DNA from: Gammaproteobacteria bacterium 28-57-27
GTDB taxonomy: Bacteria; Pseudomonadota; Gammaproteobacteria; Halothiobacillales; Halothiobacillaceae
Length of the DNA stretch: 64,000 bases
Assembly: GCA_002281735.1 (NCBI GenBank)
Contig: NCGK01000019.1
Span: 10,777 to 74,776 of the forward strand
Reading direction: 5' to 3'
The stretch's first letter is position 1, and each line of letters begins with the position of its first letter. The translations under genes and the position numbers were made by a program. Below, piece by piece: positions 2,364 to 34,502 of the stretch. The notes under the pieces are model-generated. The model ran no database searches. It had not been told where the DNA came from and saw nothing but the letters and a program-made list of their open reading frames with translations.

Positions 2364-3562
2364 AAATGCTCGCAGTCTTCCCAATGCACCTGTGCGGCAG
2401 GAAGATTGCTTTGCACACTCTCTCGACCCATGCCACCAGTGATGCCATCAGCACAATGCACTCTAAGTTGCGCGGATGCATCCAGCTGGAGGTGTAATGT
2501 CTGCTCCGGCACAACGCTGGCCTTGATCTGCACACGATCACGCAATTCGCTGAATACACCTTGCGGTGCCACCAGCCAACCCGTATCCGTAGGCTTTGCT
2601 TGCACACGGCCTCCGGGCAAACCAAAACCCTGCCATTGAGCGTCGATCGCTATCGAGGATGTGGGGCTTGCAACAGACAGCCAGATTTCGGGGCTAGCGC
2701 GCTCAAGACGCAGCACATGGCCATCCGCCCAATCATTTGCGCCGAAGGTGCGCGTCCAATGCAAATCCACCGGCGAGGCCATCAATGCGCCGAAGATCAC
2801 GCCCACGCTTATCACGCCACCGATCCCCCAACGCAAGGGCTTGGATAATTGCAACGGTGCGGGCGTCCAACCCGCTTCACGCTGCGGAATGCGCATGATG
2901 AGGTAGTAACTCAACCATGCCGCAAAAAATGATAACCACGCAGCCCACAAGACATCCGAAAGATAATGCCCGCCCGCCGCAATGCGTGAAAAGCCCATGG
3001 ATGCCCCAAGGATCAGCGCCAACCCCAAAGCCGCCGCCGCCAAGCGCGGATGACGCTTGCGCCACAACAACCACAGTGCAGCCAGTGCAAAGCCCGCTGA
3101 ACAATGCCCACAGGGGAACGACTTGCCGCCTGCGGCTTCACCAATCATCAATGGCGGCGCGTAGGGATATTCCCCGCCAAAATCCTGCGTTTGCACAGGG
3201 CGCGGGCGATCCAAAAACTCTTTGAAGATGCCATTCACCAACAAGCCAGGCCCAAGAACCACCGTCAGCACCACCACCGCCGCGTGTGCACGCCAAGGTT
3301 TAAGGCGTGCAAACCAGCCACCGAATAACACGATGAACAAGGCGGGCAAAGCCACCAGCATGGTGAGGATCGGCGCGGCCCTGTAACAAAACTGCACAAA
3401 CGGCAGATTCTGCACCGGCCACGCCGCATCGCCTGTGCCAAGTTCAGGGTGATAAAAAATCGAACTGATTTGAATATCCAGGGGGAATAGCCAAAACGGC
3501 AGGCTGCTGACCAGCATCAGGCCGAGAAGGATGAAGAGATGCTTACGATAGGACTTACGCAA
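2360..3562 (-). CDS. PAP2-family membrane phosphatase with C-terminal extension
   Basis: KEFLDRPRP, SFPCGH and SRIAAGGHYLSDV PAP2 motifs; TTG start lies inside a MITE terminal repeat. Confidence 0.85.
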   Translation of the reverse strand: MRKSYRKHLFILLGLMLVSSLPFWLFPLDIQISSIFYHPELGTGDAAWPVQNLPFVQFCYRAAPILTMLVALPALFIVLFGGWFARLKPWRAHAAVVVLTVVLGPGLLVNGIFKEFLDRPRPVQTQDFGGEYPYAPPLMIGEAAGGKSFPCGHCSAGFALAALWLLWRKRHPRLAAAALGLALILGASMGFSRIAAGGHYLSDVLWAAWLSFFAAWLSYYLIMRIPQREAGWTPAPLQLSKPLRWGIGGVISVGVIFGALMASPVDLHWTRTFGANDWADGHVLRLERASPEIWLSVASPTSSIAIDAQWQGFGLPGGRVQAKPTDTGWLVAPQGVFSELRDRVQIKASVVPEQTLHLQLDASAQLRVHCADGITGGMGRESVQSNLPAAQVHWEDCEHL

Positions 3563-4554: not shown

Positions 4555-4721
4555 GGACTTTGCTCCAAAGCATCACGCCCCAAGAGGAGACGTTGTGTAG
4601 GTATTAGAAGGTCGCGCAATTTACACCACTCAAGCCCGCTTGGCAACACATTCGTTGCTATTGTTTGCTGATACGGCATTGTCTGGTGGCGTTTTTTTGC
4701 CGGCCTGATAGCCTTGAACGC

Positions 4722-22463: not shown

Positions 22464-22479
22464 AGCAGTCTTCGTGCCA
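22464..22479 (-). promoter_or_regulatory. sigma54 -24/-12 promoter of the ABC operon
   Basis: Minus strand TGGCACGAAGACTGCT matches TGGCACG-N4-TTGCW. Confidence 0.85.
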
Positions 22480-22562
22480 AAAAACCATGGGAGAGCCGCG
22501 AAGTGCCACCATGCACGCTATCGGCGCGGAGACCAGGGGCAAAAAGGAGTGAATACGACCGA

Positions 22563-22579
22563 AGCACCAAAACAGTGCA
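22563..22579. promoter_or_regulatory. Candidate NtrC-binding site
   Basis: AGCACCA-AAA-CAGTGCA versus consensus TGCACCA-N3-TGGTGCA, about 85 bp upstream of the -24 element. Confidence 0.5.
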
Positions 22580-22622
22580 GCAAGCCGCACTGAACAAAGT
22601 CAGCCGTTTTGGCTTGATGCAT

Positions 22623-22664
22623 GGACATTGCATTACCAACACCCGCTAATGTCGAACAATGTCC
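22623..22664. promoter_or_regulatory. Candidate activator UAS
   Basis: GGACATTG-N26-CAATGTCC inverted repeat; GTCGAACAATGTCC (22651-22664) recurs exactly at 34397-34410. Confidence 0.65.
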
Positions 22665-22723
22665 AGCGAAAATCGGCTCGACTCTTGCTTAAACCCTATT
22701 GATTCGGCACGGACAAGTCGAGC

Positions 22724-22769
22724 GTAGGTCAGGCTTTAGCCTGACATGTCGGCCTAAAGGCCGACCTAC
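22724..22769. repeat. GTAG-type REP doublet
   Basis: GTAGGTCAGGCTTTAGCCTGACA-TGTCGGCCTAAAGGCCGACCTAC. Confidence 0.8.
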
Positions 22770-22770
22770 A

Positions 22771-22869
22771 TAGGACTTACGCAAAAGTGTTCCAGCAAGG
22801 CAAAGCGCCGAAGACAGTACACTGAGTACGGCGAGGCGCTTGAACGCCGCTGGGGCGGTTTTGCGTAAG
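22771..22869. mobile_element. MITE-like element, copy 2, right end truncated
   Basis: Aligns with 3549-3652; ends TTTTGCGTAAG without TCCTA and runs into activator coding sequence. Confidence 0.8.
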
Positions 22870-22984
22870 CACGCTCTCACTCACGCCCAGCGAGCCCAAC
22901 GAACCGCATGGTGAAGCCGAAGACATCGAGCTGCTGGTTATCCACGAGGCCGCACGCCTGCTCGGCCACGCCACCACGCCTGAA

Positions 22985-24568
22985 GTGGCGATCAACGGCA
23001 TCCTGCGCCTGATGTCGCAGATGGTCGGCCTCAATCGCGGGCGGGTGGTACTACCGGATGACAGCGGCCACATGAGCATCCAGTATGCCTACGGCCTGAC
23101 CGCGCTCGAACGCCAGCGCGGCCAGTACGCGCCGGGCGAAGGCGTGACCGGACGGGTTATGCGCACGGGACAAACAGCCGTCATCCAGAACATCGACGAC
23201 GAGCCGCTCTACCTGACCCGCGCCGTCGAGCGCACCACCCTGCCGCAAGAGACCGTGTCGTTCCTGGCCGTGCCGATTCTGCATGACAACGTGCCAATGG
23301 GCGTGCTCGGCGCGCACCGCCTGCGCAAACGCAAGCGCGCCTTCAGCCGCGACGTGACTTTGCTGCGCGTACTGGCCACCTTTATTGCGCAAATCCTGCG
23401 TATGAATGCGTTAATCGAAGAAAAGACCGCACGGCTGGCGGACGAAAACCGCGCACTCAAGCAAGCCCTGGACGATCACACCGAGGGCGCGCATGGCATT
23501 CTGGGCGACAGCCCGGCGCTGAAGCAGGCGCTACGTCAGGCACTGCACGTCGCCCCCACCCAAGCCACCGTACTGCTGAGCGGCGAATCCGGCACCGGCA
23601 AGGAACGCTTCGCACGCATGGTGCATATCAGCAGTGCGCGCTGCGACGGCCCATTTATCGCCATCAACTGCGCCGCCATCCCGGAAAACCTGCTCGAATC
23701 CGAGCTGTTCGGCCATGAAAAAGGCTCGTTCACCGGCGCGGTGGCGTTGAAAAAAGGCGTGGTCGAGCTGGCCAGCGGCGGCACCCTGTTTCTGGATGAA
23801 ATCGGCGATCTGGCCTTCGACCTGCAATCCAAGCTGCTGCATGTTCTGGAGAAGCAACTCATCAAGCGCGTCGGCGGCGTCAAAGATGTCCCGGTGGACG
23901 TGCGCATCATCGCCGCCACCCACAAAAACCTGCAAAAGGCGGTCAACGAGGGGCGCTTCCGCATCGACCTGTTCTACCGCCTCAATGTCTTTCCTATCCA
24001 CCTGCCGCCGCTGCGTGAACGTTCCGGCGATGTGCGCAGCCTGGCGCGGCATTTCCTGCAAGCCGCCAATCAGGAGTTCGACCGCAACACCATGTTCGGC
24101 GCAGGCGTGCTGGAAAGGCTGGAGCACTACAACTGGCCGGGCAACATCCGCCAACTGGAAAACGTGGTTAAACGCGCCGTATTGGTCACCCAGGACGGCC
24201 AAATCAAGCTGGAAGACATCATCCTGATCCTGCGTCACGAGGCGAATATCGGCGAACATCTGGAAGCCGGCATGGCGCTTTCACCCAGCGGGGGAGGCGT
24301 TGCCCTAGCCGCCCCGCCCATGCCCGTCCCGCCCGAAATGCGCGAAACCACCCGCCCCGCCCCGCTCCAACCGGTCAACCTGCGCGGCTACAACTGGGTG
24401 CGCGAAGACGAAGCGCAAGAACTGCTCGACGCGCTCAAACAAGCGCGCGGCAACAAAACCCGCGCGGCGATGGCGCTAGGCATGACCGCACGCCAGTTGA
24501 GGTACCGGATGGTTAAATTGGGGTTGATGGATGGAGGGGAGTCAGAAGCGTCTAACGGGAAAGTCTAA
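22985..24568 (+). CDS. NifA-like sigma54-dependent activator (GAF-AAA-Fis HTH); coding frame extends back to about 22868 with no canonical start
   Basis: GAF region, GESGTGKE, ESELFGHEKGSFTGA, LFLDEIG, WPGNIRQLEN, C-terminal HTH. Confidence 0.92.
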   Translation: MAINGILRLMSQMVGLNRGRVVLPDDSGHMSIQYAYGLTALERQRGQYAPGEGVTGRVMRTGQTAVIQNIDDEPLYLTRAVERTTLPQETVSFLAVPILHDNVPMGVLGAHRLRKRKRAFSRDVTLLRVLATFIAQILRMNALIEEKTARLADENRALKQALDDHTEGAHGILGDSPALKQALRQALHVAPTQATVLLSGESGTGKERFARMVHISSARCDGPFIAINCAAIPENLLESELFGHEKGSFTGAVALKKGVVELASGGTLFLDEIGDLAFDLQSKLLHVLEKQLIKRVGGVKDVPVDVRIIAATHKNLQKAVNEGRFRIDLFYRLNVFPIHLPPLRERSGDVRSLARHFLQAANQEFDRNTMFGAGVLERLEHYNWPGNIRQLENVVKRAVLVTQDGQIKLEDIILILRHEANIGEHLEAGMALSPSGGGVALAAPPMPVPPEMRETTRPAPLQPVNLRGYNWVREDEAQELLDALKQARGNKTRAAMALGMTARQLRYRMVKLGLMDGGESEASNGKV

Positions 24569-24588
24569 CGAGATTTATCCATGAAATC

Positions 24589-24642
24589 GTAGGGTGCGCC
24601 ATGCGCACCTTTTAGCCAATCGGTGCGCATGGCGCACCCTAC
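24589..24642. repeat. GTAG-type REP doublet
   Basis: GTAGGGTGCGCCATGCGCACC...GGTGCGCATGGCGCACCCTAC perfect 21-bp inverted repeat. Confidence 0.85.
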
Positions 24643-24677
24643 GACCTGGCGGACAATCACGCATGAAGCTAGCCGGT

Positions 24678-24986
24678 TCAATAGGGTAACGACTCCGACA
24701 CAAAGCCAGCCTCGCGTTGATGCCGAACTGAGAGCATCAGGACAGTGTCGCGCTCCGGCTCATAGCTGTACAACGCGAGGTAGCCGGACTTGCCACGTGA
24801 AATAACGAGCTCTCTCAGTCCTTGCTCGCTGGGGCGGCCAATCAGGGGATGGTTTTCGAGAACATGCACCGCCTCGGTGATGAGTTCCACCGTCTCCACG
24901 GCGGCGACCGGCTCAGTCTGAAGGAGAAAGTCGGTAAGCCGAACGAGATCAGAAAGCGCTCGCTCGGTATAGATCACGCACGCCAA
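24678..24986 (-). CDS. RelE/ParE family toxin
   Basis: ERALSDL; LENHPLIGRP; GLRELVISRGKSGY; VRHQRE. Confidence 0.88.
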   Translation of the reverse strand: MACVIYTERALSDLVRLTDFLLQTEPVAAVETVELITEAVHVLENHPLIGRPSEQGLRELVISRGKSGYLALYSYEPERDTVLMLSVRHQREAGFVSESLPY

Positions 24987-25258
24987 GATTTGGCCTTGGG
25001 TTTGGGTACGGATTCACCCTGGGCTTGAGCGCGCAGGTAGGCATGCACCTCTTCAGCCGCGTAGCCCTCACCAGACTGAAGCGCCGCGTTTCTTGCAGCG
25101 ACGGCATCCGCAACGAACTGCGCTCGCCTTTCCGCATGTGACGCTGCGGTGCGGATAGCATCCACCATAAACGCATGTGGCGAGATGCCCTGCTGCCTAG
25201 CAGCGGCCACAGCAAGCTGCTTGACATCTTCAGGGAGTTTCAGTGATGTCGTAGACAT
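24974..25258 (-). CDS. Ribbon-helix-helix antitoxin
   Basis: MSTTSLKLPEDVKQ; overlaps the toxin start by 13 bp. Confidence 0.82.
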   Translation of the reverse strand: MSTTSLKLPEDVKQLAVAAARQQGISPHAFMVDAIRTAASHAERRAQFVADAVAARNAALQSGEGYAAEEVHAYLRAQAQGESVPKPKAKSWRA

Positions 25259-25329
25259 GGCAGTTATCTTTTTATCGACGGTGTCACCACGATAACACCG
25301 CCTGATTGGTCGTGACAATTGGGCTTCTG

Positions 25330-25364
25330 TTGACACGCGCATTTACAAGCAATAAGCTTGTAAA
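25330..25364 (+). promoter_or_regulatory. sigma70 promoter with overlapping palindromic operator
   Basis: TTGACA-17bp-TAAGCT; TTTACAAGC-N5-GCTTGTAAA at 25342-25364. Confidence 0.65.
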
Positions 25365-25387
25365 CATAACTTTTCAAGGAAAAAAAC

Positions 25388-26356
25388 ATGACTGACGGCA
25401 GAGTTAGAAGCGGAAAGGCAACTTCTGAGGCAATGACGGCAGAGCAAAAAACAGCTAGAGCAAAGGCTGGAGCGGCAAAGAGGGCTGAGCTAGCTGCTAT
25501 TCCTAAGGCCACGCATAAGGGGGAGCTGAAAATTGGAGACTCAATACTTCCTTGCTTTGTTCTTGAGGATGGCCGCCGCGTTCTTTCTGGCCGAGGGTTG
25601 CAAGAATCGCTTAGGCTTGTGGATGACTCAAAATCAGGGGCGAAACTAGATAGATTATTTGAAAATAAGAGCCTAAATCCATTTTTAAAAAATGAGTTAG
25701 GCGCGGCTCATTTTTCGCCAATTATTTGCCTTGCAGACGGGAAAAAAATCAGCGGATATGAAGCTACGATTTTGTCAGATTTGTGTGATGCTGTTCTTGA
25801 GGCAAGAAAAAGTGGTGCAGTAACTACTTCACGGCTAAAGATAGTTGCAGATCAGAGTGAAATGCTAATGCGTGGCTTTGCTCGGGTAGGGTTGATAGCT
25901 TTAGTTGACGAGGCTACTGGTTATCAGGCCGCGCGGGAGAAGGATGCTCTAGCGAAGATTTTAGAAGCTTTTGTAGCGAAAGAACTGCGTCCGTGGATGA
26001 AAACGTTCCCAAACGCATATTACGAAGAAATATTCAGGCTATACAAACTTCCATATCCGCCAGTTAATAATAAAAATTGGAAGCCTTCGTTTATTGGAAC
26101 ACTAACTAATAATGTTGTGTATGAAAGACTGGCTCCAGATATTTTGCCAGAACTAAAAAAAGCGGCTTCAAAAGCCGAGAAGAAGGCAAGGTTACACCAA
26201 TGGCTTACAGATGATATTGGGCATCCAAAACTAAGAGAGCATTTAGCATCAATAGTTACACTATTAAAGCTTTCATCTACACCACAAGATTTTAAAGATA
26301 AAGTTGATAGAATACACCCCGCTTTTGGTCAAACGTATACTATGGATTTTGAATAA
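25388..26356 (+). CDS. P63C domain protein, AT-rich gene
   Basis: CFVLEDGRRVLSGRG; VGLIALVDEATGYQ; FPNAYYEEIFRL; RLHQWLT. Confidence 0.88.
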   Translation: MTDGRVRSGKATSEAMTAEQKTARAKAGAAKRAELAAIPKATHKGELKIGDSILPCFVLEDGRRVLSGRGLQESLRLVDDSKSGAKLDRLFENKSLNPFLKNELGAAHFSPIICLADGKKISGYEATILSDLCDAVLEARKSGAVTTSRLKIVADQSEMLMRGFARVGLIALVDEATGYQAAREKDALAKILEAFVAKELRPWMKTFPNAYYEEIFRLYKLPYPPVNNKNWKPSFIGTLTNNVVYERLAPDILPELKKAASKAEKKARLHQWLTDDIGHPKLREHLASIVTLLKLSSTPQDFKDKVDRIHPAFGQTYTMDFE

Positions 26357-26363
26357 GAGTGAT

Positions 26364-26459
26364 GCCTAACGTCGGAGGGAACTGGCGACTGGAGCCGCTC
26401 AGCGTCGGAAGAAACCCAAAGCGATGCTTTGAGCAGTCCTGTTGACTGAGGAGTTGAAT
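26364..26459 (+). other. attC-like site (96 bp) after the P63C gene
   Basis: GCCTAAC 7 nt after the stop; GTTGAAT fits GTTRRRY; arms AACTGGCGACTG / CAGTCCTGTT; inner GCTCA..GCGTCG / CGATGC..TGAGC stem. Confidence 0.6.
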
Positions 26460-26644
26460 CGTTCCCACGCTCCAACGTCCCGACACACCGTAGCAAGGCT
26501 TCAATCAGAAGTCGATCCGTCATTCTGGAGATGGATAAGCATCCATTGTTCTGGTCTGCACCGTCGTCGACGGGTTGCTCGCGGCTCGGTTAGGCACCGC
26601 TGGAGCGGCTCTGGATGCATTACCACGCTGGAGCGTGGGAACGA
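26459..26644. repeat. Inverted REP pair (TCGTTCCCACGCTCC family)
   Basis: TCGTTCCCACGCTCCAACGT at 26459 and CCACGCTGGAGCGTGGGAACGA at 26623-26644. Confidence 0.7.
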
Positions 26645-26698
26645 TGAAAGCCAGGAGGACTGGAAGAGCGGACAGCCGCGTGCAGGTTGGTCGCGCCA

Positions 26699-26796
26699 TG
26701 TCACAATCCAGACAAAAAAAACCCGCGCACGAAAAACACAAAACCATTCAAAATCAAAAAGTTACTCGATAACACAGGATTGGCACGCATATCGCT
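26699..26796 (+). promoter_or_regulatory. sigma54 promoter with IHF site and TGT-N10-ACA UAS
   Basis: TGT-N10-ACA 26699-26714; AATCAA-AAAG-TTA 26752-26764; TGGCACGCATATCGCT 26781-26796. Confidence 0.8.
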
Positions 26797-26834
26797 TTGT
26801 CCCGGCTTACCTTGCCTAAACCAAAGGACATGCC

Positions 26835-28538
26835 ATGAAACTCCGCATTGAGCGCACGCACATTGAAGCGCTGATGGCGGCCTTTCCCCGCTTGGAAAGT
26901 CTGCGCGAACAACTGCGCTTCGGCCATGCGGTCGAGGTGGCTTTCAACGCGCTGGGCGACGATGAGCTCGACTTCCTGCATGATCTGTACGCTGCGGGCG
27001 AGCCGTCGCTCCAGGCGCGCGCCGCGCAGATCGCCACGCTCAGGAACGCATTGCGGCATGAGGGTGTGCGCTTTGAGGCGGAAGACTTGGAGATGCTGGT
27101 GCCGGTCATCGCGCGCTACCTGGTCAGCGAATGCAGCCGTGGCTGGTTGTTCGCCGCCAATGTCACCGGCAAGCTGCTCGCCTATGTGGTGACGCGCATC
27201 GACTACACCCCGCCGGCGGATGAAGAGACCGGCAAGGTCTATCTCGAACTCAAGGCCAATGCCAAGGCCAAGCTGGCTCTTGTCAATCTGCGCATCTCCG
27301 CGCCGGACATTGCGGGTCGCACCGTGGCGGAAATCTTCGCCGCCAAAGGCTTCGTCAAGGAAACGCCGGAACTGCTGCGCCGTTATGACGAGGCGGCGGC
27401 GTGTTATTTCGACTGGCGAGCGCGCTACGGCAAGCAGTTCACGGGTCAGGGGGTGGGCTATTACGCCGAAAACCCCACCGCCACGCACCGCGATACCGAC
27501 TGGTCACGCAAGGACGTGGTGGTGCTCTCTTCCAGCGGTGCACCCGCGCGGCTGGTGAATGATGAAGGCATCCTCGGCGAGCGGGTGCTGGCGCTGGACG
27601 CCACCGGCGAGATTCTGTCCAAATACCTGCGCCGCGTCACCCGTGGCGCGCGTCTGTCCGGCAAAGAGGAGGCCGCGCTGGAAGAAGTGGCCGAAACGAT
27701 TCCAGAGGGCTTGTTCACCGAACTGCCGGTGCATTTTTATATCCTGGTGTTCCACCTCGACCTGCATCATTACCTATGGGTGCATGTGGACGATATGCAG
27801 CCGTATGTCTACCAGCCGGAGCTGAAGCACAAGCTGGTGCTGCCGCCGGAGCAGACCGATCTGATCGACATTCTCACCGCCGAGATGGATGTGCTGATGG
27901 ACGATATCGTCGCGGGTAAGTCCGGCGGCACCACGGTGCTTTGCGCGGGTCCTGCGGGGGTGGGCAAGACGCTGACCGCCGAGGTGTATTCCGAGATTAT
28001 CCAACGACCGCTTTACCGCGTGCATTCCGGCCAGCTCGGGCTGAGCGTCGCCAGCATGGAAACCACGCTCAAGGAGATACTGACCCGCGCCCAGCGCTGG
28101 GGCGCGGTGATGCTGATCGACGAGGCCGATGTCTATATCAAGCGCCGCGAGGACGATCTGACCATGAACGCCGTGGTCGGGGTGTTCCTGCGCGTGCTGG
28201 AATACTTCAACGGCCTGCTGTTCCTCACCACCAACCGCGTGGACGACATTGACGAGGCCATTATTTCGCGCTGCATTGCCATGATCCGCTTCCACCCGCC
28301 GGGACGCGAAGACCGCAAGCGGATCTGGATGGTAATGAGCGAACAATTCGGCCTGACCCTTGCGCCGGAACTCATGGATGCCCTGCCCGACCTATTTCCC
28401 GCCGCCAGTGGACGCGACATCAAGGGGCTGGCAAAACTGGTCGCCAAATACTGCAACCAGAAAGGCGTTCCACCCAGCGAGGAAGTCTTCCGCCGTTGTT
28501 CGGTGTTTCGGGGGATGGATAGTGCGCAGATGGCTTAG
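26835..28538 (+). CDS. AAA+ ATPase with a large uncharacterised N-terminal region
   Basis: GPAGVGKT; MLIDEAD; LRVLEYFNGLLFLTTNR; AIISR. Confidence 0.88.
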   Translation: MKLRIERTHIEALMAAFPRLESLREQLRFGHAVEVAFNALGDDELDFLHDLYAAGEPSLQARAAQIATLRNALRHEGVRFEAEDLEMLVPVIARYLVSECSRGWLFAANVTGKLLAYVVTRIDYTPPADEETGKVYLELKANAKAKLALVNLRISAPDIAGRTVAEIFAAKGFVKETPELLRRYDEAAACYFDWRARYGKQFTGQGVGYYAENPTATHRDTDWSRKDVVVLSSSGAPARLVNDEGILGERVLALDATGEILSKYLRRVTRGARLSGKEEAALEEVAETIPEGLFTELPVHFYILVFHLDLHHYLWVHVDDMQPYVYQPELKHKLVLPPEQTDLIDILTAEMDVLMDDIVAGKSGGTTVLCAGPAGVGKTLTAEVYSEIIQRPLYRVHSGQLGLSVASMETTLKEILTRAQRWGAVMLIDEADVYIKRREDDLTMNAVVGVFLRVLEYFNGLLFLTTNRVDDIDEAIISRCIAMIRFHPPGREDRKRIWMVMSEQFGLTLAPELMDALPDLFPAASGRDIKGLAKLVAKYCNQKGVPPSEEVFRRCSVFRGMDSAQMA

Positions 28539-28574
28539 GGGCGTGTTTACGATTGGCGGTCAACAGGCTTTTGG

Positions 28575-28690
28575 CTCCCTCTCCCCTCGCGGGAGAGGGC
28601 TGGGGAGAGGGGGCGCAGGCTTGACGTGGGGCACAAGACTGAAAAACCGCCCACCCTCTCCCCAACCCTCCCCCATCAAGGGGGAGGGAG
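28575..28690. repeat. CCCTCTCCC-type REP doublet
   Basis: CTCCCTCTCCCCTCGCGGGAGAGGGCTGGGGAGAGGGG and inverted CCCTCTCCCCAACCCTCCCCCATCAAGGGGGAGGGAG. Confidence 0.7.
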
Positions 28691-28755
28691 TAAAGCGCCC
28701 TTATTGACATCATGTGTGGGTTGTCGATCTTGAGCCGCTTGAGCCCGACCCGCCG

Positions 28756-29226
28756 CTAAACCTCTTCAGCTTCAAGCTCTTCCAACAACGCCACCACCAC
28801 CGAGGAACCGACCGCATCGTCAATATCCAGCCGCTGCAAGTGCCGGATGATGGAACCCGCCTCCGTGGTCTCGCCCCGGCGCAGATGAATAAAGGACAAG
28901 GCTTTCAATGCAGCCAAGGCATAACCCGGCGCGGCCTGCCATTGCTGCCAGTCTCCAGGAAGCTGCGCATGGCGGACAGCCTCGCTCAACCAGGCCTGTG
29001 TCGCCGCATGAGCGGACTCGAACTGGCGCGTGCGGTTGTAATGCTTGACCAGGCAACGATGTGCCGGCAGCGCCTCCGGCATCATCGCAATGGCCGCGAT
29101 GAAATTCGCCTCAGCTCGCGCCGGGTCGCTGAAATGCGCGACCACGCCGTGTTGCAGCAAGCGATCCACCTCCGGAGGCAAGGCACCGAAGTCCAATGTG
29201 TCGTCGATATTGTCTAGCGTGTTCAT
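28756..29226 (-). CDS. Hypothetical helical (TPR-like) protein; start ATG 29226 or 29262
   Basis: Ala-rich amphipathic helices; no catalytic motif seen. Confidence 0.7.
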   Translation of the reverse strand: MNTLDNIDDTLDFGALPPEVDRLLQHGVVAHFSDPARAEANFIAAIAMMPEALPAHRCLVKHYNRTRQFESAHAATQAWLSEAVRHAQLPGDWQQWQAAPGYALAALKALSFIHLRRGETTEAGSIIRHLQRLDIDDAVGSSVVVALLEELEAEEV

Positions 29227-29412
29227 GCCTTGCACTAAAGCAAAAATCGTTCCTTGATCCATAGGTTTGGGGTCGATCTGGCGTAAACACCTGTTCTACC
29301 GGGCTTGCTGCGCCCAAGTCACGTTCTGTGCAGCAGCGCGGGGACGCTTAAAATAGCCGACAGATAGGCATTTTCGGCTCATGTCTGTCGTGTTCAGGAC
29401 AAAACACCAGAC

Positions 29413-29865
29413 TCAACCGAAGAACGGCCCGGCCACCCCAACCACGCTAATCAACACGCCTAGCCCCAGATTGACCGCCATCACCCGACGGATGGGATTC
29501 ATCACCGCGCCGCCCTCGGACCAGTTTTCGGCGGCCACCGCGCGGCGCAGGCGGGCGAACAGCACGAAGTACAGCCAGGCAAAGATCAGGATCATCAACC
29601 AGCCCACCACCTGCATGGCGATCAGGTAGAGCGGCGTGTTTTGGCCAAAGCGGGCGAGCATATCCAGATAGCCGCTGAGTATCAGCACGGCGATGAATAT
29701 CCACACCCAGGGAAAGAAGCGCGTATAAATGCTGACCCACATGCGTAGTCGGGCAGGCGGCTCCAATTGCGCACTGACCGGGCGCATGACCATGTAGGCG
29801 AAAAAAATGCCACCGATCCAGAACACGGCGGCGAGGGTGTGCAGGGACAGATACAAGGCGGACAT
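29413..29865 (-). CDS. CopD-like four-TM membrane protein
   Basis: LHTLAAVFWIGGIFF; FFPWVWIF; four hydrophobic segments. Confidence 0.75.
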   Translation of the reverse strand: MSALYLSLHTLAAVFWIGGIFFAYMVMRPVSAQLEPPARLRMWVSIYTRFFPWVWIFIAVLILSGYLDMLARFGQNTPLYLIAMQVVGWLMILIFAWLYFVLFARLRRAVAAENWSEGGAVMNPIRRVMAVNLGLGVLISVVGVAGPFFG

Positions 29866-29912
29866 GGGGACTCCTCAGCAAGGGCGAATGGGGTGCGACC
29901 ATGCTAGCAGGA

Positions 29913-30037
29913 TATTGATCCGGCTCGAATTAAGTGTTGAGCACCCGTTCGCCCTGAGCTTGTCGAAGGGCATTACGCTAGGCTTCGACAAGCTCAGGGC
30001 GAACGGATATTTAAACTATTTGAGTGCCGGATCAATA
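29913..30037. mobile_element. 125-bp element with TATTGATCCGGC termini enclosing a REP hairpin
   Basis: 12-bp terminal inverted repeat; inner CCGTTCGCCCTGAGCTTGTCGAAG...CTTCGACAAGCTCAGGGCGAACGG. Confidence 0.65.
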
Positions 30038-30070
30038 GCTTGGTGAGACATCCTCCCATGCGTTGGTTGA

Positions 30071-30102
30071 GGGCACATCCCCACGCCGGTGGGGATGTGC
30101 CC
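30071..30102. terminator. Perfect hairpin after the rhodanese gene (terminator or RNA-stability element)
   Basis: GGGCACATCCCCAC-GCCG-GTGGGGATGTGCCC; no clear U tract. Confidence 0.45.
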
Positions 30103-30121
30103 AAGGGTTGCGTCCTGTTGC

Positions 30122-30979
30122 TCAGGCTGGGGCGTAAGGCAGACCTGATTCAATGGGCAGCTCAGGATCACGCGACCACTCGTTCCAAGAACCGAAGTAG
30201 AGTTTGACGTTATTGACTCCCGCCGCTTTGAGCGCGACCAAGGTATTGGAAGCGCGCGCGCCTTTGAAGCAGTAGAGGTAGACCGGGGTATCCGAGCCGA
30301 TGCCCACGGTGTGACATTCAGCCAGGATTTCTTCCGGAGCCTTATAAAGCGGGGTCGCGCCCGGCTTCATGAAGCGATACCACTCGATCCAGCGCGCGCC
30401 GGGCAGACGACCCTTGCGCGGGCAGAAGTCTTTGCCATACGGTGAGGAGCTGGTACCGATCCACTCATCAATGTCGCGCACGTCCAGCAGCACCACGTTC
30501 TCATCATCCAGCGCGGCCAGCACTTCGTCCTTGCCGATCAGCAGCTCGGTTCCGGTGTCACGCAGCGGGAATTCGGTACTTGCCGCCTCGGGAACTTCGG
30601 TGGTGACCGGCAGACCGGCGTCCAGCCAGGCGCGGTAGCCGCCATGCAGGATGGAGACTTTCGGATAGCCCAAATAGGCGAGCAGCACATAACCGCGTGT
30701 GGACTGGCCGAAGCCGGTGTTCATCGCCTCCTCGTAGATCACCGCCGTTTCCTTACCGGTCAGCCCGGCCTTGCCGAAGGCCTCGGAGAACTTGGCCTTG
30801 AGCGCCGCCAAGCCTTCCGGGGTGGAGGTGGCGAGGTAGGTGAAGATGTCATGGATGTTCACCGCGCCAGGAATATGCCCGGCGGCATAGGACTCCGGCG
30901 AGCGGGTGTCGATGATGACCGTGGGTTCCTTTTCGGTCAGGGTCAGCAGCTCTGGGACAGATAGTAGAACAGTGCTCAT
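30122..30979 (-). CDS. Tandem-domain rhodanese/sulfurtransferase
   Basis: YAAGHIPGAVN; LDVRDIDEW; GRLPGA; active loop YCFKGARAS; YFGSWNEWS. Confidence 0.92.
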   Translation of the reverse strand: MSTVLLSVPELLTLTEKEPTVIIDTRSPESYAAGHIPGAVNIHDIFTYLATSTPEGLAALKAKFSEAFGKAGLTGKETAVIYEEAMNTGFGQSTRGYVLLAYLGYPKVSILHGGYRAWLDAGLPVTTEVPEAASTEFPLRDTGTELLIGKDEVLAALDDENVVLLDVRDIDEWIGTSSSPYGKDFCPRKGRLPGARWIEWYRFMKPGATPLYKAPEEILAECHTVGIGSDTPVYLYCFKGARASNTLVALKAAGVNNVKLYFGSWNEWSRDPELPIESGLPYAPA

Positions 30980-31029
30980 GCGCGGCTTCCTCGGTGGTGG
31001 TGAAAAAAGTGGGTAGGAGAGGGTCTCAT

Positions 31030-32451
31030 TCAGTTCGCAGCCACTTGGCGGCAGATGGTTTCGTAAAGCTCGGAGGCGCGGGCGGCTTCCGCACCGCTGA
31101 GGGCATAGCCAACCGCTTTGCCGTGGGCGAGGAAGCTCATGCGGCAGGCTGTGCCGTTTTCACTCTCTTGCACCCAGTGTCCCAAGTCGGCCACGCTCAG
31201 GTCGGGTGGGCACAGATTGAGCGCCAGACTCGGCGTTTTGACGCGGATGGCGGTTGGTTTGCACTCAAACAGTGCACTTTCGCCGCAGATTGACGCCGCA
31301 ATCGCTTCAGCCTGACGCTTGATCGGCTCGATGTAAAAATAGCTGCGCCCGTCTACCTCGGCGCAATCGCCCACGACAAAGATATGCGGGTCGCTGCTGC
31401 GCATATCGGCCGGATCGGCATGAATGCCGCGATTAACCAGCAGACCCGCCTTTTTCGCCAGTTCGATATTCGGCACCAGACCCATGGCGGAAATCACCAG
31501 ATCAGTAGCAAGTGTCGCGCCATCGGTCAGGGTGGCGCGATACCCGGCGCAGTCGCTCGCACCGCCGCGCTCCAACGCGGCCAGACTGACACCGGGACGG
31601 AAGTCGATGCCCTGCGGCTTGAGCGCTTGCAGCAAACGCGCGGCCAGCGGCGGCGGCGCAAGACGCCCCAACAACTGCTCGCCCAGATCAAGCAGGGTGA
31701 CGCGATGCCCGCCTGCGTGCAGGTCTTCGGCGAATTCCACGCCAATCAGACCCGCGCCGATCAGGGTGACGTGCTGCGCGCCGCTATCCAGCCGTTCGCG
31801 CATCTTGCGGTAGCTGGCCAGGTCGTTGACGCGCAGGATGTCGTCAGCGGCCCCGCCTTCAAAGGGACGGCGGCGCTGGCTGGCGCCCAAGGCGAGCACC
31901 AGTTGGCCGTATTTCACATTACCCTTGGCGGTCATCAGGCGTTTGTCGGCAGGCTTGATGCCCATCACACGGGTGTTGGCCTGCAAGGTCACGCCCAGTT
32001 CGGCGGCCTTGTCCGTGCCGGATTGTTCCACCAGATCATCCGCGCTGCGCCCCTGACCAATGGCCATGCTCAGCGCGGGTTTGGGATAGACGCAACCATC
32101 ATCGGCGCAGATCAAGGTGATCGCGCGTTCCGGGTCGCGTGCGCGCAGGCGTTCGGCCACCGTCCAGCCTGCAATGCCGCTGCCGACGATGACCACCGCG
32201 TCCTCCCCGCCCACCTGCCCCTTGGCACGCGGCGGACGGTTTTTCGGCGCGGAGGAACCGCCACGCTGGGCGGCATACTCTTCCAAAGTGATGAAGTCGG
32301 CCTTGGTCACCCCGCACAACGGGCACGACCAGTCCTCAGGGATGTCTTCAAAGCGCGTGCCGGGAGCGAGCCCGCTGTCCAGGTCGCCCTTGCTCTCGTC
32401 GTAGATCCATCCGCAGGTCTTGCAGATCCAGCGCGGGGTGCTCATAGCCAT
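31030..32451 (-). CDS. Rubredoxin fused to FAD-dependent NAD(P)H oxidoreductase
   Basis: CKTCGWIYD...WSCPLCG; VIVGSGIAG; LIGAGLIGVEFA; VGDCA. Confidence 0.92.
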   Translation of the reverse strand: MAMSTPRWICKTCGWIYDESKGDLDSGLAPGTRFEDIPEDWSCPLCGVTKADFITLEEYAAQRGGSSAPKNRPPRAKGQVGGEDAVVIVGSGIAGWTVAERLRARDPERAITLICADDGCVYPKPALSMAIGQGRSADDLVEQSGTDKAAELGVTLQANTRVMGIKPADKRLMTAKGNVKYGQLVLALGASQRRRPFEGGAADDILRVNDLASYRKMRERLDSGAQHVTLIGAGLIGVEFAEDLHAGGHRVTLLDLGEQLLGRLAPPPLAARLLQALKPQGIDFRPGVSLAALERGGASDCAGYRATLTDGATLATDLVISAMGLVPNIELAKKAGLLVNRGIHADPADMRSSDPHIFVVGDCAEVDGRSYFYIEPIKRQAEAIAASICGESALFECKPTAIRVKTPSLALNLCPPDLSVADLGHWVQESENGTACRMSFLAHGKAVGYALSGAEAARASELYETICRQVAAN

Positions 32452-32469
32452 TCTCCAGCAATAATCAGA

Positions 32470-33606
32470 TCAAGCCGCCGCCATGGCGTCAATTTCCTTG
32501 CGCAGGTGCTTGGTGGCCGGAGTCACAATGGCCACAAAATAGGCCTCGCGCAATTTGCGCTGCGCCGGGGCGTCGTGCAGATAACCGTTGGCGCCGGTGT
32601 GCAGCATGGCCGAATTGGCCGCTTTGACCACCAGTTCACCGCCCAACAAACGCGCTTCCAGCACGCTGCGGATGTAGTCCGGGTCTTGATTGAACGGCGT
32701 TTCGCACAGTCCAGCGATAGCCTCGCGTGCATCCTCCAGCTCAACACGCAGCTCATCGGGGCGATCATCAAGGTAGCAATTAACATGCCCAAGCTTGGGT
32801 TCCACGTCTTCGCACAACTGGATGCAGCTTTCGATCACCCCGGTCGCCATACCGGTCTGCAACAGGATAAAGCCCGCTTTCATCTTCTTTAGATAAGGAA
32901 TCAGCGGGTCGCCCAACACATGGTTCTTCGGCACGAAGACATCCTTGAACACCAGCGCATAGGTGCCGGTGCCTTCCATGCCGCAGAATTTGGCCAGCTG
33001 TTTGAGCTCCATCCCTTCCCAGGAGGTATTGACCAGAGCCATCACATCGCGCGGGTTGTCGCCGCCGACTTTGAAAATGGAACCGAACCAGTGATCGGGA
33101 CCGAGGTTGGAGATCCACGGCAGGTTGCCGTTAAGGATGAAACCGTCCTCGGTTTCGACGGCAGACACCAGCAACGGCTCAATGCCGGCCAGGTATTTCA
33201 TCGGATTGGAGAGCGCCGTGCCACCGAGTGCTTCGCCGCTGGCCAGTTTGGGCAGCAGGGTTTGCTTGAGATAGTCGTTATTCGACATCTCGACGTACCA
33301 GCACACCACGTCCTGCGCCCACATCATAAAGCCGGTGGACATGCACTCTTGCGAGACAATATCCATCGCCTTCAGTGCGGCCTGCAGGTCGTATTCGCCG
33401 CGCCCGTTCTGCGAGGCGAGGTGCTGACGGAAAGCGCCCGCTTCGCCCAGTGCGCGCAACACCTCGGCAGGGTAATGTCCCTGATCGATCTTCACGGTCA
33501 GCGGGGCGAGTTTGTCGCGCACGATGTCGCGGATCGTATTGAACAGCAGCTCGCCCATGGGGGCAGCGGGCGCGATTTCATTCAGACTAGGTGTTACGGC
33601 GGTCAT
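32470..33606 (-). CDS. Acyl-CoA-dehydrogenase-fold flavoprotein, non-canonical
   Basis: ACAD architecture (GTALSNP; LNGNLPWISN; AMLHTGANGY); IYEGT replaced by IVTPAT. Confidence 0.85.
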   Translation of the reverse strand: MTAVTPSLNEIAPAAPMGELLFNTIRDIVRDKLAPLTVKIDQGHYPAEVLRALGEAGAFRQHLASQNGRGEYDLQAALKAMDIVSQECMSTGFMMWAQDVVCWYVEMSNNDYLKQTLLPKLASGEALGGTALSNPMKYLAGIEPLLVSAVETEDGFILNGNLPWISNLGPDHWFGSIFKVGGDNPRDVMALVNTSWEGMELKQLAKFCGMEGTGTYALVFKDVFVPKNHVLGDPLIPYLKKMKAGFILLQTGMATGVIESCIQLCEDVEPKLGHVNCYLDDRPDELRVELEDAREAIAGLCETPFNQDPDYIRSVLEARLLGGELVVKAANSAMLHTGANGYLHDAPAQRKLREAYFVAIVTPATKHLRKEIDAMAAA

Positions 33607-33664
33607 GGCGTTCTCCTTCGGAATTCTTGAGGCCGCTTCGCCACACGACGAAGCGGCGGGTTCA

Positions 33665-34228
33665 TTACAGCAGGGCGCAGTCGAGAGCGACCGGACGCAT
33701 CATGGTGTTGGCAACCGGCGACCACTTCTTGGCGTGTTGCAGCAGGGCATCCAGGTCTTCCGGGCTGACCGGATCGAGGGTGGCGACGTCAAACTTGACG
33801 CGAATGGCGGTGAAGCCCAGCGGCTTGTCTTCAGCCAAGTCGCCCGTACCCCACACGGCGGTGACGTTGATATCGCCTTCGATCAGCAACTCCAGCTTGG
33901 TCAGCTTGATGCCGCGTGCGGTAGAGTTGGCATGTACACCCACCGCTAGGCAAGCGCCGAGCGCAGCCAGCAGGGCTTCGGACGGGTTCGGCGCGGTGTC
34001 TTCGCCCAGCAGGTGCGGCGGCTCATCCACCACCACCGGCGCCAGTTCGCGGATATAGGTTAGGTTGCGGAACTGGCCTTCGCACACGGTCTTGGCTTTC
34101 AGGGTGACAACAGCGCTCGGATTGGCTTTGCCTTTCTCGCCAAGGGCAGCGAGGCCGCTCGCATCGATTTCGCGCAGGGCTTGACGGATGCAGGACGGGG
34201 CGACAGGTTCTTCAAACTGGGTGCTCAT
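33665..34228 (-). CDS. OsmC/Ohr-fold protein, C-terminal Cys replaced by Ser
   Basis: DEPPHLLGEDTAPNPSEALLAALGACL; WSPVANT. Confidence 0.85.
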   Translation of the reverse strand: MSTQFEEPVAPSCIRQALREIDASGLAALGEKGKANPSAVVTLKAKTVCEGQFRNLTYIRELAPVVVDEPPHLLGEDTAPNPSEALLAALGACLAVGVHANSTARGIKLTKLELLIEGDINVTAVWGTGDLAEDKPLGFTAIRVKFDVATLDPVSPEDLDALLQHAKKWSPVANTMMRPVALDCALL

Positions 34229-34273
34229 GGGGATTTTCCTCGGTTATGCGTTGATGGTTCGCAATCGAGGTAA

Positions 34274-34309
34274 TGCACAGCCCGTGCCAAGCGGCTCAAC
34301 CCATTGATA
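34274..34309 (-). promoter_or_regulatory. sigma54 promoter plus IHF site of the four-gene redox operon
   Basis: Minus strand TGGCACGGGCTGTGCA (34274-34289); TATCAA-TGGG-TTG (34297-34309). Confidence 0.82.
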
Positions 34310-34355
34310 TAAAAGATATTTTACTAAACAAGCCGCACACCACTGCACCAAAGCA

Positions 34356-34410
34356 TGACATTGTCGATCTATTTGTCCTTAAATGTCCTTTTTACGGTCG
34401 AACAATGTCC
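34356..34410. promoter_or_regulatory. Candidate activator UAS between divergent promoters
   Basis: GACATTGTC 34357-34365; AAATGTCC 34381-34388; GTCGAACAATGTCC 34397-34410. Confidence 0.65.
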
Positions 34411-34486
34411 GACCGGAGGGTGTTGAGCGCGCCGCGCTGCGCGCCAAATATCCCGAAAGCCGCATCCAGACGCGCTTCGTCAATGT

Positions 34487-34502
34487 TGGCAAGCTTTTTG
34501 AT
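34487..34502 (+). promoter_or_regulatory. Variant sigma54 promoter for cynS
   Basis: TGGCAAGCTTTTTGAT: -24 GG and spacing fit, -12 is GA instead of GC. Confidence 0.45.

Follow-up and report, generated by a model that had tools for sequence, protein, structure and literature searches.

The 64-kb window analysed here, comprising 64,000 nucleotides from the genome of a Halothiobacillaceae bacterium recovered from mine drainage and tailings metagenomes, contains a gene cluster arranged in two divergent pairs. In the first pair, a CynABD-type ATP-binding cassette (ABC) transporter operon (19320−22421, minus strand) diverges from the gene of a σ54-dependent activator (22985−24568, plus strand), and in the second, an operon that begins with an osmC-like gene (29413−34228, minus strand; referred to as the redox operon) diverges from the cyanase gene cynS (34575−35018, plus strand). 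A window scan located the sequence GTCGAACAATGTCC exactly at 22651−22664 in the first intergenic region and at 34397−34410 in the second, both on the plus strand, and returned no further match at two or fewer mismatches anywhere in the 64 kb. From sequence comparisons we consider it likely that these 14-mers are instances of a σ54 upstream activator sequence, which would be bound by the product of the adjacent activator gene and would serve the cyanate transporter operon, the redox operon and cynS.

A preliminary description of this DNA had reported the identical motif at the two places together with extra half-sites near both copies, and our scan recovered all of these elements. Beside the first copy, the half-sites GGACATTG and AATGTCG were found at 22623−22630 and 22648−22654, respectively; beside the second copy, TGACATTGTCG, TGTCC and AATGTCC were found at 34356−34366, 34374−34378 and 34382−34388. 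The identity of the two 14-mers was unremarkable by itself, with 183 repeated 14-mers present in the window (11−39 in shuffled sequences) and two or more matches to this 14-mer at two or fewer mismatches reached in 7 of 100 shuffles; its significance comes from the context and from conservation in other genomes. The similarity between the two copies was confined to the site, and they do not represent a duplication because their flanks are unrelated. The conserved unit is a palindrome with the core GACAWTGTC (sGACAwTGTCs in its fuller form), usually present in groups of two to three sites. The GTC at the start of the 14-mer is explained by a weak preference for G-t-C located three bases beyond the core. 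This preference stems from overlapping tandem sites with a 10-bp spacing, such as CGACATTGTCGGACATTGTCA in Marinobacter. The earlier proposal of a shared motif is supported as regards the regulatory site, with the refinement that the recognized unit is the GACAWTGTC palindrome in arrays and not the 14-mer.

In the transporter-activator intergenic region, two overlapping tandem sites, CGCTAATGTCG and GAACAATGTCC (22644−22664), include the first 14-mer copy, and the degenerate site or half-site GGACATTGcat at 22623−22633 aligns with GGACATTGCAC, GGACATTGCGC and CGACATTGTCG of close relatives. On the cynS side of the cluster, the TGACATTGTCG site at 34356−34366 pairs with the site at 34400 in all orthologous osmC-cynS intergenic regions. 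The half-sites TGTCC and AATGTCC, spaced by ~10 bp (34374−34388), lie between these two full sites and are also present in one related locus (L082), and the second 14-mer (34397−34410) carries its core GAACAATGTCC at 34400−34410 within the near-palindrome GTCGAACAATGTCCGAC. When the window was scanned with two matrices, the sites at 22659 (scores 19.5 and 20.0) and 34356−34366 (18.5 and 20.7) were the top two matches, followed by the second 14-mer site as the third best (17.0 and 17.5).

The conservation of the palindrome was assessed in ~75 loci encoding relatives of the activator, which were gathered with the GAF domain and then by GAF alignment; the full-length activator used as a query gave only generic σ54 activators of no more than 40% identity, with AAA+ motifs dominating the patterns. 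The core was present ~100−200 bp upstream of strong −24/−12 promoters in ~70 related loci from Halothiobacillaceae, Guyparkeria, Marinobacter, Alloalcanivorax, Amphritea, Halomonas and others, and the same architecture was seen in Marinobacter, Marinobacterium, Halomonas, Alloalcanivorax, Guyparkeria and Amphritea. Among Halothiobacillaceae, all orthologues of the osmC-cynS and transporter-activator intergenic regions contained such palindromes in pairs (sGACAwTGTCs). The exact 14-mer was absent even from the nearest relative, where its two sites read GAACATTGTTC and TGACAATGTCC. In an unbiased 8-mer count, ACAATGTC ranked first, being found in 75 of 113 upstream regions versus 1 of 179 coding controls, and ACATTGTC was found in 72 of the 113 versus 2 of the 179. 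The density of the 9-mer core reached 1.60 per kb in the target upstream regions, compared to 0.024 per kb across the rest of the 1.14 Mb, and the core matched 101 times, whereas 11 permutations of the palindrome with unchanged composition matched 0−1 times each. When a matrix was derived solely from distant loci, with activators no more than ~70% identical, 34361, 22659 and 34405 came out as the top three positions of the 64 kb, with a drop of more than 5 bits to the fourth. The centers of adjacent sites were spaced mostly by 10, 20−21 or 31−32 bp (43−44 bp once each), corresponding, with exceptions, to roughly whole helical turns. The preliminary description had made its proposal depend on conservation of the motif in orthologous promoters, and this conservation is clearly borne out by the ~70 loci, the 8-mer count and the matrix.

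The −24/−12 elements associated with the 14-mers are located ~172 bp (22464−22479), ~108 bp (34274−34289) and ~77 bp (34487−34502) away, which agrees with the earlier placement of the copies upstream of σ54 promoters. The predicted promoter of the transporter operon, TGGCACGAAGACTGCT (22464−22479, minus strand; predicted start ~22453), and that of the redox operon, TGGCACGGGCTGTGCA (34274−34289, minus strand; predicted start ~34263), both fit the pattern of GG/GC doublets 10 bp apart, TGGCAC-N5-TTGCW, as does a further element at 22674−22689. A strong element equivalent to the transporter promoter was present in 28 of 29 orthologous loci, and a strong TGGCAY-N5-(Y)TGCW preceded nearly all of 50 orthologous osmC-like genes. 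The σ54-type promoter predicted for cynS, TGGCAAGCTTTTTGAT (34487−34502, plus strand; predicted start ~34513), has GA at −12. Its pattern TGGCA(A/G)G-N4-TTG(A/T) was kept in 11 diverged loci of Halothiobacillaceae and relatives, all of these genomes combining a perfect −24 TGGCA with TTGA or TTGT that replaces TTGC at −12. A σ70 promoter for cynS was also considered and rejected; the single weak match overlapped the element and was not conserved in relatives.

As the preliminary description had stated, the second 14-mer lies between the divergent promoters of the redox operon (minus strand) and cynS (plus strand). The 34356−34366 site is positioned at approximately −98 from the predicted redox-operon start and −152 from the predicted cynS start, and the second 14-mer site at approximately −142 and −108, respectively, so that one pair of sites appears to serve two divergent promoters. 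The sites for the transporter operon are at approximately −175 and −206 from its predicted start, the latter being the site at 22659. Similar distances from the predicted starts were obtained for the orthologues, with sites at −97 to −142 for the redox operon and at −165 to −206 for the transporter. The previously described consensus for integration host factor (IHF) was confirmed at 34297−34309 on the minus strand (TATCAATGGGTTG), between the redox-operon promoter and the activator sites, as an exact match to WATCAANNNNTTR, which has 5 matches in the window versus 1.2 expected. The IHF match was retained only in the closest relatives, being exact in L082, with one mismatch in L084, and absent in L088 and L089.

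The site at 22654 abuts a fourth conserved σ54-type promoter, predicted to be that of the activator gene, at approximately −41 from its predicted start, and the same coordinate was obtained for the site at 22659. This promoter, CGGCTCGACTCTTGCT (22674−22689, plus strand; predicted start ~22700), coincides with the block of strongest conservation in the transporter-activator alignment, CGGC-N-CGA-N-TCTTGCTT, a GG-N10-GC element that reads into the activator gene. Its GG-N8-TTGC pattern was found in 28 loci, mostly with a site centered 15−18 bp upstream of the GG, and the arrangement of site and promoter also preceded the activator gene in the distant Marinobacter-type loci L128, L129 and L141. 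Farther upstream, the NtrC-like palindrome AGCACCAAAACAGTGCA (22563−22579, plus strand), which has 2 mismatches to TGCACC-N5-GGTGCA, is centered at approximately −129 from the predicted activator-gene start, and 14 of the 28 orthologous loci have a similar palindrome centered 93−106 bp before the GG. The NtrC-like sequence reported at 22563 draws its support solely from this position kept in relatives; by itself it does not rise above chance in the window, where 5 such matches were found versus 5.8 expected. A repeat is inserted between the activator-gene promoter and the coding region (22715−22869); it consists of two hairpin units (22715−22778) and an element of ~100 bp (22770−22869) with the inverted ends CTTACGCAAAA/TTTTGCGTAAG, which is ~92% identical to a copy at 3548−3648 and is absent from the closest relatives.

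The activator encoded at 22985−24568 is the sole σ54 activator in the window and the only regulator conserved together with the motif across the loci, its gene being linked to the transporter, redox and cynS operons in ~70 of them. Pfam assigned it a NifA-like arrangement of GAF, AAA+ and HTH_8 domains (231 bits for PF00158), and databases name the family generically or, wrongly, as Nif-specific. The σ54 contact loop (residues ~244−249, window 23700−23720) reads GSFTGA; of 72 relatives, 64 have GAFTGA and 6 have GSFTGA. The first canonical start codon is the GTG at 22985, and the conserved N-terminal residues EDIELLVIHEAARLLGHATTPE are encoded before it, in a segment (22850−22985) that contains no in-frame ATG, GTG or TTG and whose ATG at 22908 lies in another frame, pointing to either an unusual start codon, an assembly indel or a shortened protein. 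In the HTH domain, the segment GGNKT(R/Q)AA..LGM..RQ(F/L)RYR was nearly invariant wherever the core occurred, and the core was missing only in the most distant homologues (41−45% identity), in which this stretch is RQFIYR or RQICYR. Sites with small changes persist in a lineage that has RQLTYR, and the covariation of the HTH segment with the motif is weak for this reason.

A Thioalkalivibrio homologue, 46−47% identical to the activator, has the same core before the σ54 promoter of a formamidase-like gene. In the Thioalkalivibrio loci L168 (9540−9760), L166 and L167, downstream of the GAF activator gene come GACAATGTC, a TGGCACGATTCTCGCT promoter and a gene whose product starts like a formamidase or acetamidase. 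The same DNA site may control a different small-nitrogen-compound regulon in Thioalkalivibrio. The regulator of the thiocyanate dehydrogenase operon of this genus was examined as a candidate relative and set aside as a response regulator that does not belong to the GAF/AAA+/HTH activator family.

The transporter operon (Pfam NMT1_2, BPD_transp_1 and ABC_tran) encodes a substrate-binding protein (21045−22421), a permease (20201−21079; NCBIfam ntrB, above the cut-off) and an ATPase (19320−20504; NCBIfam ntrCD, above the cut-off), all on the minus strand. The longest open reading frame (ORF) of the ATPase overlaps the permease gene by ~300 bp, and the true start is probably further downstream because in several relatives the alignment starts only around residue 104. 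The closest solved structures to the substrate-binding protein were NrtA and CmpA, and over its full length of 458 residues it was 56% identical to Pseudomonas CynA. By sequence, the transporter is orthologous to CynABD, with cyanate as the predicted substrate. The cyanase was recognized by Pfam (Cyanate_lyase and CYNS_N) and by NCBIfam, with 166 bits against a cut-off of 113 for TIGR00673 and 202 against 150 for NF002773.

According to Pfam and NCBIfam, the redox operon (minus strand) encodes an OsmC-like protein (33665−34228), a flavoprotein with an acyl-CoA-dehydrogenase fold (32470−33606), a rubredoxin fused to a NorW-like reductase (31030−32451), a tandem rhodanese (30122−30979) and a CopD-like membrane protein (29413−29865), the last of which may form a separate unit. 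Where canonical enzymes have YEG(T), with the catalytic glutamate, the flavoprotein shows an invariant VTP, and the OsmC-like protein keeps the first of the two usual cysteines, the second being Ser (WSPV); these substitutions make the textbook family activity unlikely for either protein. For the flavoprotein, an AlphaFold model (pLDDT 89.6) searched with Foldseek matched only the generic acyl-CoA dehydrogenase fold at ~20% identity, and these matches do not separate a dehydrogenase from an oxygenase.

Synteny of the redox operon with the activator gene extended across ~60 loci. The two divergent pairs described for the window are the gene order of Halothiobacillaceae and Guyparkeria. In Marinobacter, Marinobacterium, Halomonas, Amphritea, Alloalcanivorax and others, the order is NMT1_2-type ABC transporter, activator, OsmC-like protein, flavoprotein, reductase and cynS, often joined by the rhodanese, and some loci contain the redox operon without an adjacent cynS. 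The activator gene and the redox operon are separated by a variable island (24600−29300) with genes for a ParE toxin and its partner, a protein with a P63C domain and an AAA ATPase, besides small ORFs. Relatives have a shorter version of this island, and Thiofaba sp. EF100 (L088) has none. Elsewhere the window contains ordinary chromosomal genes, namely trp, pst/pho and ppk/ppx genes and a cell-division cluster.

These observations are consistent with a model in which dimers of the GAF/AAA+/HTH activator bind the GACAWTGTC sites and assemble into the active oligomer upon sensing of a signal by the GAF domain. DNA looping, aided by IHF at the redox-operon promoter, would then allow the oligomer to activate the σ54-containing RNA polymerase at three promoters, those of the CynABD-type transporter operon, the operon for the OsmC-like protein, flavoprotein, rubredoxin-reductase and rhodanese, and cynS. 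Since an NtrC-like palindrome recurs upstream of the activator-gene promoter in relatives, we infer that NtrC would switch on the activator gene when nitrogen is limiting, similar to nifLA in Klebsiella. This suggests a nitrogen-limitation cascade from NtrC through the activator to the cyanate genes, in which the activator would also regulate its own promoter; this feedback would probably be negative, although this is a guess made from the −41 position of the site. The architecture is that of standard σ54 enhancers, and the activator family and its site appear to be undescribed; full-text literature searches gave no relevant result for either the motif sequences or the gene cluster.

Several observations weigh against this interpretation. 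Among public sequencing runs, a search returned DNA metagenomes alone and no useful RNA. The canonical GC at −12 is missing from the cynS promoter, and the second site in the transporter-activator region of the window is merely a half-site. A site at approximately −41 is atypical for activation, leaving the direction of autoregulation to guesswork, and the NtrC-like site is at the chance level when the window alone is considered. The canonical start of the activator is lost behind the inserted repeat, and the gene may be poorly expressed in this organism. Finally, the related loci are not phylogenetically independent, which inflates the raw counts. A more radical objection is that the identity of the two 14-mers is accidental or is left over from a duplicated or mobile segment, and has no function. 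The excess of repeated 14-mers in the window fits this explanation, and a genuine mobile repeat (22770−22869) lies just 100 bp away; the flanks of the two copies, however, are dissimilar beyond the site, the core is kept at orthologous positions in dozens of genomes amid diverged surroundings, and the matrix derived from distant genomes singles out exactly these sites, all of which renders a functionless origin highly improbable.

The palindrome, though a genuine conserved regulatory site, might still be bound by another factor encoded elsewhere, such as a repressor or a global regulator for nitrogen or sulfur, with the local activator binding other sequences. The location of the site at approximately −41 in the activator-gene promoter does resemble an operator position. 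Yet the motif goes together with the activator gene in different orders of Gammaproteobacteria and occurs almost only in the regulatory regions of the cluster, and the cluster itself has no second conserved regulator gene. Moreover, arrays at −100 to −200 are typical of enhancer sites, and the promoters share no further conserved repeated element, the NtrC-like and IHF sites excepted. We therefore regard binding by a different factor as unlikely, and the local activator as the protein that most likely recognizes the palindrome. It is also conceivable that the local activator binds these sites in a system devoted chiefly to a stress response, for instance to reactive sulfur species or peroxide, to which nitrogen control and induction by cyanate would be incidental. 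Three to four of the regulated genes encode uncharacterized redox or sulfur-transfer proteins, and the loci with the redox operon but no adjacent cynS point the same way. Against this stand the presence of both cynS and the CynA-orthologous transporter in the cluster at most loci, the NtrC-like site held at a conserved position upstream of the activator gene, and the related Thioalkalivibrio activator with the same core before the formamidase-like gene, another enzyme for a small nitrogen compound; a primary role in stress accordingly seems quite unlikely.

Under the favored reading, an upstream activator sequence recognized by the local activator, the transporter and the cyanase point to cyanate assimilation by the regulon. 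The constant association of the redox enzymes with cynS, often together with the rhodanese, also allows the idea that cyanate is produced in the cell by an undescribed route. The flavoprotein, the rubredoxin-fused reductase, the OsmC-like protein and the rhodanese might oxidize thiocyanate, cyanide or a related one-carbon nitrogen/sulfur compound to cyanate, the cyanase would then yield ammonium, and the GAF activator would sense the substrate under NtrC control; we consider this combined scheme a tentative and rather doubtful one. Regardless of the pathway, three uncharacterized enzymes and a rhodanese are tied to the cyanase by predicted co-regulation and by a gene order that recurs in many marine and sulfur-oxidizing Gammaproteobacteria, offering a lead into the metabolism of cyanate, thiocyanate and cyanide. 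The regulatory logic itself is textbook; what the analysis adds is a testable DNA site and a regulon for a widespread family of σ54 activators.

Among the known systems, NifA offers the closest parallel in domain order. NifA recognizes the upstream activator sequence TGT-N10-ACA, and in Klebsiella it acts in a cascade that runs from NtrC to nifLA and on to the nif operons. The activator described here shares the order GAF, AAA+ and HTH_8 with NifA, which was its best NCBIfam match, but its score for NifA (TIGR01817) was 455.4 bits, under the cut-off of 528.85, and membership in that family was rejected. Both systems place their sites ~100−200 bp upstream of −24/−12 promoters with an IHF site in between, and in both the activator gene is apparently driven by a σ54 promoter with an NtrC-like site. 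They differ in the site itself, which is GACAWTGTC here, in the cyanate genes as targets and in the lack of an adjacent gene for a NifL partner. No TGT-N10-ACA was found in either intergenic region, which upholds the earlier distinction between this site and that of NifA, and no nif genes were found in the window or in the related loci.

NtrC (NR-I) binds TGCACC-N5-GGTGCA sites at glnAp2 and nifLA. The palindrome at 22563−22579 resembles these sites with two mismatches, and its position relative to the activator-gene promoter is kept in relatives; it is unlike the main motif in sequence and is present as a single site in the window. In Escherichia coli, the LysR-type regulator CynR controls the cyanase operon cynTSX in response to cyanate, acting at a σ70 promoter. 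The two systems have the regulation of cyanase in common, but a CynR-homologous regulator, cynT and cynX are all absent beside the cynS gene studied here.

A cyanate cluster that has been characterized genetically is cynFABDS of Pseudomonas pseudoalcaligenes CECT5344 (PMC6627978). As in the present window, the gene of a σ54-dependent activator, CynF, is divergent from the σ54 promoter of a cyanate ABC transporter (PMC6627978), the cyanase is part of the regulon, and the CynA proteins are 56% identical. The Pseudomonas cluster differs in having cynS within the transporter operon and a proposed σ70 promoter for cynF (PMC6627978), and in lacking the operon for the OsmC-like protein, flavoprotein and reductase. 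We retrieved a cynF locus of Pseudomonas sediminis (L174) by a back-translated pattern. Orthology of the two activators was rejected: P. sediminis CynF has two PAS domains rather than GAF, and only the AAA+ core aligns (42%). The cynF-cynA region of this species contains three AACGAKATTTCGTCA repeats and no GACAWTGTC. At 4640−4725 of L174, these appear as three direct repeats AACGA(T/G)ATTTCGTCA upstream of the cynA σ54 promoter, a candidate CynF binding site that receives no mention in PMC6627978. CynF is thus, as far as the sequences tell, the closest functional analogue of the activator described here and not its orthologue. Orthologous genes for cyanate transport and cyanase would then have been placed under unrelated sensor and DNA-binding modules, with GAF in this family and PAS in Pseudomonas CynF.

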